The notes below the pieces were generated by a model. That model was not told where the DNA came from, did not search any database, and saw only the letters and a program-made list of their open reading frames with translations. A stretch of DNA of 64,000 nt. Source: Oligoflexales bacterium (GTDB lineage: Bacteria; Bdellovibrionota_B; Oligoflexia; Oligoflexales; JAPPIL01). The stretch is from NCBI GenBank assembly GCA_965215515.1, contig OZ244057.1, positions 960,001-1,024,000 on the forward strand. Reading direction: 5' to 3'. Of the stretch, positions 40,225 through 44,297 are shown piece by piece. Made by a program: the position numbers and the translations under genes. Every line of letters starts with the position of its first letter. Within the stretch, counting starts at the first letter, position 1.

Positions 40225-41796
40225 TTACTCAAGTAGTGCTGACATATCGATCTCGCCCTCTATCAGTTTGGGGAGGAGAGTGTCACGTAGGTGGGCAAGA
40301 TTTTTTGATTCTTGATCGAAATTTTTAACGAAAAAACTGTTCATCACAGTTTCAAAAACAGATATAATGGCACGTTCAGGAACTAAAATTTCGAGGCTTT
40401 TCATACTATTGCCCGTGATTTCTTTGAACGTGCTTCCCGTAGCAACAGCTTTCATCTTGTCAACATTAGCCTTAGACCACGAATACAAAAAATGACTTCC
40501 AAGACAACCTCTCGGAACTAGTGCTTTGAAACCCTGATTTGTGCATAGATTTTTCTCTGAGAAGGCAATATACCCGATAGGTGCTCTTGATGAAATAACC
40601 ACTGCTCCTTTGGGCATCAGTTTAGCACTAGATTTTTTCAAGCCTAGTTCGGTTATATCTGTTGCACCACAAGGAATATGTCTCCAACCCCGCGGTATCG
40701 CCCCCATCCCACTCTCCTCAAACTCATCAGGAAATAGCGAAGCAGTATGGGTGAGTGTGTCACGTTCGGTGCTACTCATGCTTGCAAGCCTTTTTGTGAG
40801 TGCCTCATCCATTGCCGAGAAATTTTCTACGAACTCGCGTGGACTGCACAGGGCAGCTATTACTGCCATCGCCGCCCGTTCCATAGGCAAGCCTGCCTCA
40901 TGTGCTAACTGCTTGGCATGCACAGGGTCAAAATCGACAAGCCACGACTTGAAGATGGCCTCAGCCATGTTTTCGAGGGTGGTGTTGATGCTTTTGTTTA
41001 ATTCTATTTTGTCGTCAAGCACACCCAACGAAGTAGAGATAGCTTCCTGTTGCTTTATCGGTGGCAATTTGACTCGTATTGTTTTGAATTTGTTAGTGGG
41101 AACTCTTTGTCTTCCTGAACTGCCTGTCATTTGTGCAATAGCGTATGGTTTAACCTGATGAGAAACTATCAGGTAGTAAACAAAATCAGGATGAGTGATC
41201 TTATCTTTGTTCCTCATCACAATAAATTCGGTAGAACCGTGTGCGGGGAGTTGACCTTTTGCTTTGAAACGGCTTATTTTCCCGTTTTCCAAACACGGAG
41301 TTATCCTAGCCATAAGGGTATCTCCATCGACAAAACGTGAACCACCCCCGTTAAAAATTTTTGTCTGTGTTGTTGCAACAATTTTATTTTCAGGCACTAA
41401 CATCTGCATATCAACACGAGGGTATAGTTCGCCTCTTAGGATTTTCACAGTTGGATTGATTTCTACCGCATCGTCAAGATACACCTCCTGCCAGCCACGG
41501 CGATAAAAAATCACGCCTTCGGTGTCGATATGTTCTTTGAAGGGCGGGTGGTCGATGGTGTGGTAGTTGACGACATCGCATAAGAAAGGCAACTCGCTGT
41601 CGTCGAGGTCACTGCTGATGTTGACTGCGGTCTTAAACGTAACATCTTTACCCTTGATGGCGAGGTCGATATCAGATGCCACACCATAGTTTCCCATCGC
41701 CCGTGAGCCGAAAATAAGTCCACGACTGACCTCTGGGTATTTTTGCAAGATTGCCGTAATTTCTGCCAGCTGTGCCTCACTCAATCCGAAGCGCAC
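40225..41796 (-). CDS. hsdS: Fusion of MNT nucleotidyltransferase antitoxin and type I R-M specificity subunit HsdS
   Basis: N-terminal ~100 aa with GSRAMGNYGVASDID (GS-X10-DXD); then DTLMARITPCLENGK..GSTEF, GSSGRQRV, PPIKQQ..I...L..LDDKIELN, LRDTLLPKL. Confidence 0.9.
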   Translation of the reverse strand: MRFGLSEAQLAEITAILQKYPEVSRGLIFGSRAMGNYGVASDIDLAIKGKDVTFKTAVNISSDLDDSELPFLCDVVNYHTIDHPPFKEHIDTEGVIFYRRGWQEVYLDDAVEINPTVKILRGELYPRVDMQMLVPENKIVATTQTKIFNGGGSRFVDGDTLMARITPCLENGKISRFKAKGQLPAHGSTEFIVMRNKDKITHPDFVYYLIVSHQVKPYAIAQMTGSSGRQRVPTNKFKTIRVKLPPIKQQEAISTSLGVLDDKIELNKSINTTLENMAEAIFKSWLVDFDPVHAKQLAHEAGLPMERAAMAVIAALCSPREFVENFSAMDEALTKRLASMSSTERDTLTHTASLFPDEFEESGMGAIPRGWRHIPCGATDITELGLKKSSAKLMPKGAVVISSRAPIGYIAFSEKNLCTNQGFKALVPRGCLGSHFLYSWSKANVDKMKAVATGSTFKEITGNSMKSLEILVPERAIISVFETVMNSFFVKNFDQESKNLAHLRDTLLPKLIEGEIDMSALLE

Positions 41797-42212
41797 TCGT
41801 CATACTCCTGCTTGAAATAACTGCGCATGTCACGCAGCACAGGGAAAAATTTTTCACAGGCAAAGTGCAATACATCTTGTAAAATCTCACCGCTGTAGAC
41901 ATGTGCCGCTTTGTTCCTGAATGTCAATGCCTCTATCCATACCTCGCCATCACGAATGTAGCCGTCTTTGTAGGCTCGGCGGATAAGTTGTTTTGAGGTG
42001 TAGGTCGTGTCGCCGTTTTCTTGCAGATAGTCAGAGAGCACATCTTTAGCCAGCTGAAAAGTAAACTCAAAGTGCTTTATTACACCAGTTTTTTCCAGAT
42101 CAGACAGCTTATCGACATGCTCGACACCACTCTTGATAGCCGCAGCAAAGTGCAGGTACGCCTTGTCAAAATTTTCAAATCGCTGTTGCCAGCGTGCTTT
42201 CTTCTCAGCCAT
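41781..42212 (-). CDS. HEPN toxin, HI0074/nucleotidyltransferase substrate-binding family, copy 2
   Basis: RWQQRFENF.KA, IKHFEFTF, RNKAAHVY (R-X4-H-X-Y). Confidence 0.9.
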   Translation of the reverse strand: MAEKKARWQQRFENFDKAYLHFAAAIKSGVEHVDKLSDLEKTGVIKHFEFTFQLAKDVLSDYLQENGDTTYTSKQLIRRAYKDGYIRDGEVWIEALTFRNKAAHVYSGEILQDVLHFACEKFFPVLRDMRSYFKQEYDECASD

Positions 42213-42228
42213 GCTCGTTATCCCTCAC

Positions 42229-42696
42229 TCAATCCGAAGCGCACTCGTCATACTCCTGCTTGAAATAACTGCGCATGTCACGCAGCACAGGGAAAAATTT
42301 TTCGCGGGCAAAGTGAAAAACTTTTTCCATGATTTCTTCTTTGTAAATATGCACAGCATCGTTGCGAGCTTCTAACGCCTTAATCCACACCTCACCGTCG
42401 CGGATATAGCCCTCTTGAAAAGATTTTCTGAGAACATACTTAGGGCCTCTGATTTCATCTTGGGGAAAACCAACGTGCAGTAGGTAATCCCTGAGGACGT
42501 TCCTTGCCAGTTCAAAAGCAAGCTCAAAACGCTTCACAAGGGTTTCTTTCAGGACGTTTTTATCTCCCCCCGTGGCATTGACGATGCCCTTGCTGACTGC
42601 ATCCGTGCCATCCCAACTAACAGCCGCAGCAAAGCGCAGGTACGCCTTGTCAAAATTTTCAAATCGCTGTTGCCAGCGTGCTTTCTTCTCAGCCAT
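42229..42696 (-). CDS. HEPN toxin, HI0074 family, copy 1
   Basis: RWQQRFENF.KA, VKRFELAF, RNDAVHIY (R-X4-H-X-Y). Confidence 0.9.
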   Translation of the reverse strand: MAEKKARWQQRFENFDKAYLRFAAAVSWDGTDAVSKGIVNATGGDKNVLKETLVKRFELAFELARNVLRDYLLHVGFPQDEIRGPKYVLRKSFQEGYIRDGEVWIKALEARNDAVHIYKEEIMEKVFHFAREKFFPVLRDMRSYFKQEYDECASD

Positions 42697-42707
42697 AACA
42701 ACACCTA

Positions 42708-44297
42708 TTATAGATCAAAACCCAGTCCCCGCATATTTTTTTTAATTTTTTGCTCCAGTGTGTGGCTTTTAGCAAAGTTTTCGGCGAGATCACTGGTCAG
42801 TTGCTGCATCTTTTCTGCAAAGGGCATGCCATTATCTTCGCGCTTGGCTAGGCCGACATACAAGCCAGGGGTAAGCACATACTTGTGGACGGCGATTTCC
42901 TCAAGCTTAACGGATTTGCAAAAACCCGCCCTGTCCTTATAGTCGCCATCCTTATTACGCCAGTGGCGATAAGTGTCCGCGATGGCGTTGATGTCATCAG
43001 GTTGCAAGGCACGTTGCGCACGACTAAGCATCGTGCCGTATTCTCTCGCATCAATGAACAACACCTCGTGTGGGCGGGCACGTTTGCCGTCTTTGCCCGA
43101 CTTGTCTTTCGCCAAAATCCAGATACAGGCAGGTATTTGGGTATTGAAAAACAATTGCGGAGGCAAGGCAATCATGCAGTCAACGAGATCAGCAGTGACG
43201 ATATTTTGCCTGATTACGCCTTCGTTGTTGGTTTTGGATGACAACGAGCCGTTCGCCAACACGATGCCTGCGTAGCCACGCGGCGAGAGATGATGGATCA
43301 TGTGTTGCAGCCACGCAAAGTTAGCGTTGTTGCGGGGGGGAAGGCCGTATCGCCAACGCTTATCGTTTTCTAACCTGCCTCTACCCCAATCACTGACGTT
43401 GAAGGGCGGATTGGCCATAATAAAGTCAGCCTGCAAGTCAGGATGTTGATTGTGATGAAAGGTGTCGGCGTGTTGCTTACCGAAATTGAACTCTATGCCA
43501 CGAATAGCCATATTCATGGCGGATAACCGCCACGTAGCGGGGTTGGACTCCTGCCCAAAAAGAGAGATTTGTTGTTTGGCTGCGTCAACGTGCTGCTTGT
43601 CGGCGTGCTCCTCGATAAATTTTTCACTCGACACAAAAAAACCGCCTGACCCCATAGCAGGATCATAAACCCGCCCTGCGTAAGGCTCAAGACAGGCAAC
43701 GATCAGGTTGACCACTGACTTGGGTGTGTAAAACTGACCACCCTTCTTGCCTTCCGCCGAAGCAAACTGACCGAGAAAATACTCGTAGACATGACCGAGA
43801 ACGTCGCGTGCCTCCTGATTGGAGTTGTGAAAACCGATGGTGGCAACCAAATCGACTAACTCACCCAGCCTGATGTCAGCTTGCCGTCGGGCAAAATCCT
43901 TCGGCAACACGTTCTTCAGACGGGGATTTTCCTTCTCCATACTGATCATCGCAGCGTCGATGATTTTGCCAATGTCGGGTTGCTTAGCGCGATCCTGAAT
44001 GCTTCCCCACCTCGCTGTAATCGGTACCCAGAAAATATTTTTTTCCTTGTAATAATCCAGCTTTTCAAGTTCTGCGTCGATATCCTCGTCCTCGCAGTAA
44101 TACTCATCATTAGGATTAGATAGACACCTATGCAATTCCTCACGGAAAGCAACAAAACTGTCCGACACATACTTCAGGAAAATCAAGCCAAGTACAACAT
44201 GCTTATATTCTGCCGCATCGACGCTGTTCCTGAGCTTGTCAGCCGCCTGCCACAGCTTCTTCTCCAACTCCTTGAGCTGTCGATCATCAGCACCCAC
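42708..44297 (-). CDS. hsdM: Type I R-M N6-adenine methyltransferase subunit
   Basis: LWQAADKLR, EYKHVVLGLIFLKY, GQFYTP, YDPAMGSGG, ANPPFN; GTG 44297 with GAGG RBS preferred (ORF extends to 44354). Confidence 0.96.
   Translation of the reverse strand: MGADDRQLKELEKKLWQAADKLRNSVDAAEYKHVVLGLIFLKYVSDSFVAFREELHRCLSNPNDEYYCEDEDIDAELEKLDYYKEKNIFWVPITARWGSIQDRAKQPDIGKIIDAAMISMEKENPRLKNVLPKDFARRQADIRLGELVDLVATIGFHNSNQEARDVLGHVYEYFLGQFASAEGKKGGQFYTPKSVVNLIVACLEPYAGRVYDPAMGSGGFFVSSEKFIEEHADKQHVDAAKQQISLFGQESNPATWRLSAMNMAIRGIEFNFGKQHADTFHHNQHPDLQADFIMANPPFNVSDWGRGRLENDKRWRYGLPPRNNANFAWLQHMIHHLSPRGYAGIVLANGSLSSKTNNEGVIRQNIVTADLVDCMIALPPQLFFNTQIPACIWILAKDKSGKDGKRARPHEVLFIDAREYGTMLSRAQRALQPDDINAIADTYRHWRNKDGDYKDRAGFCKSVKLEEIAVHKYVLTPGLYVGLAKREDNGMPFAEKMQQLTSDLAENFAKSHTLEQKIKKNMRGLGFDL

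Follow-up and report, generated by a model that had tools for sequence, protein, structure and literature searches.

A minimal nucleotidyltransferase fused to HsdS, next to two HEPN genes, in a type I methyltransferase operon of an Oligoflexales bacterium without a detected hsdR

What might be the role of a type I DNA methyltransferase operon that lacks a restriction subunit, carries two putative toxin genes and has their only candidate antitoxin built into its specificity subunit? This question is raised by a locus of an Oligoflexales bacterium (assembly GCA_965215515.1, contig OZ244057.1), whose positions 960,001-1,024,000 of the forward strand constitute the 64,000-nt window that we analysed. 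The genome consists of one 2,180,710-bp contig with a completeness score of 93.9%. Unless another contig or locus is named, coordinates are window positions. On the minus strand, tightly packed open reading frames (ORFs) at 40225-44354 follow the order hsdM, HEPN1, HEPN2 and MNT::hsdS, the last coding for a fusion of a minimal nucleotidyltransferase (MNT) with HsdS. This locus is best explained as a restriction-less remnant from a family of type I restriction-modification (R-M) systems in which a type VII toxin-antitoxin pair is embedded, and it probably acts as a methyltransferase combined with an addiction module. Its main features are the following.

42708-44354, minus strand: hsdM, type I DNA methyltransferase subunit; longest ORF, with a likely GTG start at 44297
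42229-42696, minus strand: HEPN1, HEPN protein of the HI0074/NTase_sub_bind family, 155 aa; extra copy, on a 484-bp inserted unit
41781-42212, minus strand: HEPN2, HEPN protein of the HI0074/NTase_sub_bind family, 143 aa; ancestral copy, sharing 16 bp with the MNT start
40225-41796, minus strand: MNT::HsdS fusion, 523 aa; Polbeta domain and two Methylase_S stretches
41494-41796, minus strand: MNT domain, residues 1-101 of the fusion (Polbeta, E = 2.9e-15)
40225-41493, minus strand: HsdS part of the fusion, with no linker to the MNT; contains two target-recognition domains and the conserved helical spacers

The MNT::HsdS fusion and its HEPN partners

The hsdM product matches N6_Mtase (E = 4.4e-109) and HsdM_N (1.2e-23) in Pfam/NCBIfam as well as MTase_I in PADLOC (2.5e-185), and its translation shows NPPF and DPAMGSGGF motifs. 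The GTG at 44297, which has GAGGA approximately 10 nt upstream, is plausible as the true start. HEPN1 begins 11 bp after hsdM, a gap of 16 bp separates it from HEPN2, and HEPN2 overlaps the fusion gene by 16 bp. ORF prediction and Pfam/NCBIfam matches thus bear out the gene order and spacings given in an initial annotation made from the sequence alone.

The Polbeta domain covers residues 12-100 of the fusion protein (2.9e-15) and is followed by the two Methylase_S stretches (1.1e-27). The PADLOC profile Specificity_I aligns residues 101-518 with its positions 3-397 of 403. The two target-recognition domains and conserved spacers of HsdS are thus present, and HsdM likewise displays the features of its family. 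Both the structural match described below and the AlphaFold2 model place the end of the MNT domain at about residue 100. In that model, whose mean predicted local distance difference test score (pLDDT) is 71.1, with 80-93 for the MNT part, the MNT runs straight into the first HsdS strand, strand 95-99 being followed by strand 103-106. Aligned fusions (alignment A1) differ by swaps of target-recognition domains, which are common in HsdS proteins, and the MNT and the junction are conserved: all 15 fusions have Trp102 at the junction, and the GS-x10-DxD motif, which the window MNT keeps, is likewise invariant. The locus holds the only HsdS of the genome and its only two PF08780 genes. The fusion gene was recovered without a single difference across its full length in an independent run (X2) of the source study.

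Both HEPN proteins belong to PF08780 (NTase_sub_bind; 4.5e-24 for HEPN1, 6.4e-25 for HEPN2) and score above the cut-off of TIGR01987, the HI0074 family (68.6 bits for HEPN1 against 55.8). They keep R-x4-H-x-Y and a conserved Glu. In the HEPN alignment (A4), R111, H116 and Y118 are nearly invariant and the Glu (E58) is invariant. Translations and alignments therefore agree with the initial annotation on the motifs of both HEPNs and of the MNT.

The nearest solved structures are those of a Legionella pneumophila pair, namely the HEPN toxin 8XDJ (E = 1.7e-20 with HEPN2) and the MNT 8XEH_E (2.8e-16, residues 3-100), HI0074 and HI0073 being more distant structural matches. As described in passages of Jin et al. 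(2024, PMC11586414), the Legionella HEPN (lpg2920) is an Mg-dependent RNase toxic in Escherichia coli. Its active site is formed by Q44 and E47 rather than by RX4HXY, the Tyr105 of which is AMPylated by an MNT without helix alpha4. This MNT binds the HEPN tetramer, and lpg2920 lies upstream of the MNT gene lpg2921 with an 8-bp overlap. The window genes resemble this pair in their HEPN family, their short MNT lacking helix alpha4, the HEPN gene that precedes and overlaps the MNT, and the conservation of the RX4HXY Tyr and of the Mg-site Glu. They differ in that the MNT is the N-terminal domain of HsdS rather than free-standing, that the pair lies inside a type I methylase operon with two HEPN genes, and that a Lys occupies the Q44 position.

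The initial annotation had likened the locus to HepT/MntA. In those pairs (Shewanella SO_3166/SO_3165 and the Aphanizomenon HEPN/MNT, as summarized in parts of PMC11586414), the RNase is silenced by AMPylation or oligoAMPylation of the RX4HXY Tyr. The likeness to type VII HEPN/MNT systems holds, but the window HEPNs are of the HI0074/Legionella type and not HepT proper. HepT belongs to another HEPN family (DUF86/PF01934), and MntA has a long alpha4 helix. The window proteins reached 17.7 bits (HepT_toxin) and 32.9 bits (MntA_antitoxin) against equivalog cut-offs of 60 bits (NF047751/NF047752), and 16.8 against 23.5 for Pfam HepT-like. Furthermore, the MNT gene usually comes first in HepT/MntA loci, according to sections of Anantharaman et al. 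(2013, PMC3710099), whereas the HEPN comes first in the window.

By analogy with the Legionella pair, the MNT domain would AMPylate the RX4HXY Tyr of both HEPN RNases and keep both silent. A predicted complex of a HEPN1 dimer with MNT residues 1-105 gives weak support to their association, with a score of 0.45 against 0.24 for the best of three controls. At least 92% of contacts are common to the runs, and the partner pLDDT is at least 86. Of 157 solved complexes, 116 reached the mark applied to such predictions, as did 2 of 215 mismatched pairs; at scores of 0.60 or lower, only 18 of the 157 reached it, along with both passing mismatches. The pass may only reflect likeness to a known structure, because the similar complex 8XEH has already been solved.

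Alternatively, MNT and HEPN might form a two-subunit enzyme, following an idea put forward for HI0073/HI0074, in which the HEPN would be the substrate-binding subunit instead of a toxin and HsdM, HsdR, DNA or a small molecule the target of modification; tethered to HsdS, this enzyme would regulate the R-M system. The family is still called 'nucleotidyltransferase substrate binding' in Pfam/NCBIfam, passages of Anantharaman et al. (2013, PMC3710099) describe MNT-HEPN pairs domesticated into regulatory enzymes, and RX4HXY is non-catalytic in the Legionella HEPN (PMC11586414, in part). Nevertheless, the nearest characterized homologue is a true toxin neutralized by AMPylation. Domesticated HEPNs typically lose their RNase residues (same passages of PMC3710099), and the window HEPNs keep them. 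In addition, HEPN-MNT pairs, free-standing or embedded, with the HEPN gene directly upstream occur in 76 of the 80 related loci described below, which is the habit of a mobile toxin-antitoxin pair. We thus regard a repurposed enzyme as improbable.

Fusions in other type I operons and possible coupling to restriction

The initial annotation had raised the possibility that the fusion was a one-off product of a lost stop codon. This is not the case, as it is present in 111 of the best 150 cluster representatives and in 12 of the best 80 loci found in our searches. A word-indexed protein search, limited to proteins of 287-916 aa, identified 14 further clusters at 90% identity that combine Polbeta and Methylase_S, the MNT part being 70-87% identical in nine of them. 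A profile search over 1.84 billion cluster representatives (50% identity) yielded 129,417 matches, mostly ordinary HsdS. The best 150 of these comprise the 111 proteins in which a local hidden Markov model detects the MNT domain and 39 plain HsdS proteins; the catalytic motif is kept in 106 of the 111.

Genetic environments were collected from a genomic scan with one genome per species, using the best 80 of 475 relatives. This sample is ranked by similarity to the fused query and hence favours fusions. Its loci were annotated with Pfam (58 proteins of 10 loci, then more), and all 80 were searched for the components with tblastn. The 12 loci with full-length fusions are found in Bacteroidota, Chloroflexota, Pseudomonadota, Patescibacteria and others. 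Their usual layout is hsdM, one PF08780 HEPN, MNT::hsdS, zero to three inserted genes, and hsdR. The hsdM gene is upstream in 11 of the 12 and hsdR downstream in 10, split into two ORFs in one of them (L007); a PF08780 HEPN gene lies directly upstream of the fusion in all 12, although it is truncated in L015. The contigs of L008 and L015 end before the position of hsdR could show, and PF11867 has no match in their metagenome-assembled genomes (MAGs), whose completeness is not stated. The hsdM-HEPN-MNT::hsdS synteny for which the initial annotation had proposed a search therefore recurs in relatives, but with hsdR in most of them.

The relatives' HsdR proteins have approximately 1,060-1,090 aa and HSDR_N, SWI2_SNF2, T1R_D3 and T1RH-like_C domains. 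The genes inserted before hsdR include those for PDDEXK_3, DUF900, RhuM and a peptidase_M78 protein and an IS200-like gene. With an HsdM 49-54% identical to those of the 12 fusion loci and of a thirteenth locus, L010, and with a typical HsdS, the window operon is similar to R-M systems of the HindVIIP/T1RH type, in relatives of which HsdR combines HSDR_N, SWI2_SNF2 and T1RH-like_C. In contrast with them, the window copy is devoid of HsdR.

In L010, hsdM is followed by a MazF-like gene, a HEPN gene, a gene for a 109-aa MNT, a DDE transposase gene, an hsdS starting at profile position 27 and, later, hsdR. This arrangement reads as a fusion split by an insertion sequence (IS), as far as the gene order indicates. 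At the other 67 loci the pairs are free-standing, and the queries used detected no type I genes. Thus, in this 80-locus sample, the MNT group inside a type I operon always is or was fused to HsdS (12 loci and L010). A quick tree of the MNTs (97 rows, 103 columns) leaves 54 of 93 forks open and places the fused rows in at least six groups, which does not separate one origin from several. Only free-standing MNTs and no fusion were found in 17 viral-contig loci and, by tblastn, in 92 plasmid records, and a scan of metagenome contigs with the fusion protein gave eight loci, all matching the HsdS part only (residues ~100-521).

An association of a HEPN RNase with a type I operon has a precedent in PrrC. 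In the EcoprrI operon, the R-M complex silences this HEPN RNase until a phage anti-restriction factor appears (Anantharaman et al. 2013, PMC3710099, in the sections on R-M systems). The window locus likewise has HEPN-superfamily RNases, as judged by family, within an hsdM/hsdS operon. However, PrrC has its own ABC-ATPase (ATP-binding cassette) regulatory domain and is masked by protein contact, whereas the window HEPNs (155 and 143 aa) have a single domain each and no ABC-ATPase, and the enzymatic antitoxin is covalently part of HsdS. Similarly, extra toxin or abortive infection (Abi) genes nested in the relatives' operons resemble the embedded defences described in parts of Payne et al. (10.1101/2024.01.29.577857), except that the window module is fused to a core subunit and not just nested.

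These comparisons raise the possibility of a backup abortive infection system, the guard function for which the initial annotation had argued. Silencing of the HEPNs would then depend on an intact M2S1 or R2M2S1 complex. As with PrrC, anti-restriction proteins, DNA mimics or proteolysis would trigger RNA cleavage, because damage to the complex would stop AMPylation or free bound HEPN; the window copy would act without restriction. Such a role, for the family as a whole, would fit the conservation of the fusion across phyla in complete, tightly coupled type I operons, the fused or formerly fused state of every R-M-embedded member of the MNT group, and the high proportion of fused representatives that keep the catalytic motif. 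It is also in line with the other toxin- or Abi-like genes in the same operons (RhuM, Fic, PIN, MazF, PDDEXK_3, OLD and UvrD), and PrrC-like backup roles have been proposed for R-M-linked HEPNs generally (passages of Anantharaman et al. 2013, PMC3710099). Nevertheless, no phage trigger is known for any type VII pair, these HEPNs are devoid of the ABC-ATPase sensor domain of PrrC, and PADLOC holds no family for them. AMPylation is covalent, so that release would need new synthesis or de-AMPylation, and the window copy has lost the restriction activity that a backup system presupposes. We therefore consider this function possible but rather unlikely for the locus.

We found no description of an MNT::HsdS fusion in a full-text literature search, which covered article text, with figures and most supplements outside it. 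In passages of Anantharaman et al. (2013, PMC3710099), R-M-linked HEPNs are described as fusing to nucleases, helicases and ATPases, not to methylases. The supplement text of that study contains neither TRD nor HsdS, but the legend of its Figure 5 defines 'RM_TRD', and a drawn TRD neighbour is therefore possible. Nor is the fusion mentioned in passages of Makarova et al. 2009 and 2013, of a 2026 BREX survey or of the embedded-defences preprint. The parts are each of known kinds, and the new element is the covalent union of a type I R-M system with a type VII HEPN/MNT pair. An enzymatic antitoxin inside a DNA-specificity subunit, conserved across phyla and always directly preceded by a HEPN gene, contradicts the generalization, in the passages of Makarova et al. 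2013, that immunity loci have no recognizable antitoxins. It also provides an experimental handle on the triggers of type VII systems and on the coupling of nested toxins to the host immune operon. Current annotation names the fused proteins 'restriction endonuclease subunit S' (e.g. P0012), which hides the antitoxin. The interest of the family exceeds that of the degenerate copy in the window, which is an example of how a methylase may be maintained by such a module once restriction is lost.

Some of the related loci have further features. The Methylotuvimicrobium locus L010 (6840-19302) has many nested genes before hsdR, also including DUF4160, PIN, RhuM/Fic and PIN_3 genes. In the Patescibacteria locus L015 (2579-6185), the fusion is directly followed by a Gabija-like pair made of an OLD-family AAA_15/TOPRIM gene and a UvrD helicase gene, and the truncated HEPN upstream of the fusion lacks RX4HXY. 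A Bacteroidales MAG (L069:9603-12346) harbours three HEPN-MNT pairs in tandem.

The missing hsdR, the second HEPN gene and the probable role of this copy

The initial annotation had reported no hsdR near the operon, and our genome-wide profile and tblastn searches detected none either. The best match of the genome to TIGR00348 has 17.5 bits against a cut-off of 284.55, PF11867, the C-terminal domain typical of HsdR in this R-M family, has no match, and tblastn of the genome with four HsdRs from related loci returned nothing at E <= 0.01. The sole HSDR_N match in the genome is a 395-aa HSDR_N_2+RAMA protein without helicase, and the sole SWI2_SNF2 match is an SNF2/SWIM helicase. These negative results apply to a genome scored 93.9% complete, and an hsdR on an unassembled plasmid is possible. 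As neither the window nor the genome yielded an HsdR, the locus should be filed as an orphan M+S module and not as a complete R-M system.

The DNA that follows hsdS indicates what happened to the downstream end of the operon.

40118-40224, plus strand: terminal fragment of an IS4/IS5-family element, 107 bp, directly abutting the hsdS stop codon
40118-44382, no strand assigned: acquired island of ~4.3 kb, with a G+C content of 0.45-0.51 against ~0.55 around it

The segment 40118-40224 recurs at three other places in the genome with 97-98% identity (G000:C1:290035, 1159137 and 1165044); these fragmentary copies run 160-210 nt further inward and all stop at the same base. The copy at C1:290035 lies within the 3' end of an ORF for a 220-aa DDE_Tnp_1 transposase (5.7e-19). 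The 107-bp piece is thus the truncated end of an IS4/5-family element. Since this truncated end abuts the hsdS stop codon, it marks a deletion endpoint exactly where the relatives carry hsdR. Judging from these sequences, the HsdR-less state is probably a derived one in this copy. The initial annotation had taken the absence of hsdR as a defining feature of the system, but it is a local trait, as hsdR is present in 10 of the 12 fusion loci and an IS end occupies its place here. A query with the HsdR of L010 gave 8000 matches; none of the 120 matches listed could be tied to contigs of close relatives, which neither shows nor excludes an hsdR there.

The second HEPN gene is also a local acquisition, bounded by repeats.

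42622-42696, no strand assigned: direct repeat of 75 nt at the HEPN1 5' end; partner at 42138-42212 (HEPN2 5' end), 99% identical, 484 nt apart
42223-42303, no strand assigned: direct repeat of 81 nt covering the HEPN1 3' end and the MNT start; partner at 41775-41855
42218-42244, minus strand: MNT-start stub, seven codons matching exactly those of the real MNT start, followed by Gly and a stop codon

HEPN1 and HEPN2 share 58% protein identity, and their genes are identical over the first 75 nt but for one mismatch and over the last 81 nt. The seven-codon stub follows HEPN1 because the 3' repeat extends 22 nt into the MNT frame. In run X2, the segment 41775-41855 forms a separate 81-nt contig with a depth of 14, against ~6.5 in its neighbours, in keeping with the doubled depth of the repeated HEPN ends. 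A 13,094-nt contig (rec25) from a marine metagenome run (X7) has ~93% nucleotide identity to the window over 40684-44365, with no frame damage. It skips exactly 484 nt, from 42137 to 42622, and therefore has one HEPN only, of the HEPN2 type. A second contig of run X7 carries a HEPN1-like middle beside an MNT. Recombination at the conserved ends thus added a different allele as the second HEPN, in a 484-bp insertion. All 12 related fusion loci have a single HEPN, like rec25, and the two toxins that the initial annotation had regarded as characteristic are accordingly another peculiarity of this copy.

We collected 24 proteins at E <= 1e-10 as close HEPN relatives. The closest alleles (P0282-P0303, alignment A5) combine constant N- and C-terminal ends with three variable blocks in varying combinations, and these mosaics fit recombinational diversification, as far as alignments can tell. 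HEPN1-type alleles occur singly beside closely related MNT::HsdS proteins (P0284 with P0002 and P0288 with P0009, paired by the equal size of their contigs), which suggests that one MNT type may serve several HEPN alleles. In P0282, a Tyr replaces the His of RX4HXY; P0282 and P0295 are possibly on one 15,904-nt contig, which may be a second locus with two HEPNs.

Mosaic alleles with constant ends are also expected under diversifying selection and thus speak for the PrrC-like backup function considered above. In a bolder form of that proposal, the type I methylase complex itself would be the antitoxin, with silencing tied to M2S1 integrity or to its DNA-bound state. The mosaic and tandem HEPNs would then reflect an arms race, and the R-less copy would still defend its host by RNA cleavage. 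We regard this form as speculative and doubtful.

For the window copy, we favour a methyltransferase with an addiction module. HsdM and MNT::HsdS would still form an M2S1 methyltransferase and methylate the chromosome. Loss or breakage of hsdS or of the operon would release the RNases from control; addiction would arise because the sole antitoxin is part of HsdS, and hsdM and hsdS would therefore be kept intact after the loss of restriction. The initial annotation had mentioned a toxin-antitoxin pair stabilizing a decaying R-M locus as the simpler alternative to its guard-type system, and this alternative fits the window copy better.

Several observations weigh against this explanation. The IS fragment marks a deletion endpoint and not what was deleted, and there is no direct trace of a former hsdR. 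The comparison with rec25 leaves out ~9 kb of that contig, including the DNA 3' of hsdS. Both window HEPNs have a Lys at the position aligned to the catalytic Q44 of the Legionella toxin; Gln and Lys alternate at this position across the HEPNs of the family. Moreover, post-segregational killing does not follow readily from an antitoxin that is an enzyme and whose covalent mark is stable. Lastly, the strict conservation of the fusion in complete R-M operons and the two intact toxin genes also fit a functional coupling to R-M.

The operon might also be a recently stranded fragment with no selected function that will decay. No hsdR was found in the genome, an IS scar is present at the downstream end, and the fusion was detected in none of 40 other genomes (same genus and wider relatives). 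No significant promoter-like site was detected upstream of hsdM, promoter and terminator scans giving nothing above shuffled expectation. Nevertheless, the four reading frames are intact and keep their catalytic motifs, and the ~93% identity to the metagenomic relative comes without frame damage. As the operon lies 29-86 bp behind a co-oriented gene, read-through transcription is possible. We hence judge an inert remnant to be very improbable, slightly more so than a repurposed enzyme.

Surroundings of the island and other genomic features

Two paralogous genes flank the island.

39036-40022, minus strand: flanking gene A, putative lipoprotein; no Pfam/NCBIfam match, paralogue of flanking gene B
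44383-45357, minus strand: flanking gene B, putative lipoprotein; upstream of hsdM on the same strand, no Pfam/NCBIfam match

Their products are 35% identical (E = 4e-50), with lipoprotein-like N-termini and many conserved Cys residues. The island is absent from a genome of the same genus (G002), where both flanking genes adjoin each other. A 14-nt exact direct repeat (40110-40123 and 44487-44500, 4,377 nt apart) was considered as a target-site duplication. It is probably due to chance, because its left copy straddles the boundary of the IS fragment with native DNA and its right copy is inside the conserved flanking gene.

Immediately downstream, the island is followed by gyrB, dnaN and dnaA (33704-38951), and the minimum of the cumulative GC skew falls at ~44-48 kb. 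The island therefore lies within a few kb of the likely replication origin.

Two of the other IS copies lie 5.9 kb apart in the same orientation and flank short ORFs that match no family. The first copy has a DEAD-box helicase-like gene and an MZB-domain gene on either side, and an rve integrase gene is present just past the second. The 395-aa HSDR_N_2+RAMA protein, which is free-standing, nuclease-like and without helicase, is encoded at G000:C1:1369822-1371009 (L004:1315-2502). An open frame at G000:C1:704468 (L003), with a length of at least 1,123 aa (genome search: 1,359 aa), has a weak N6_Mtase match and may represent a fused restriction-methylase or a BREX-type methylase. In the window itself, a second stretch of low G+C content (0.43-0.51) at 3284-10693, beside a tRNA-Gln gene (10622-10693), may be another island; it codes for an AAA_14/DUF4143 ATPase, a subtilase, a 598-aa ORF without family and a double-FHA protein.

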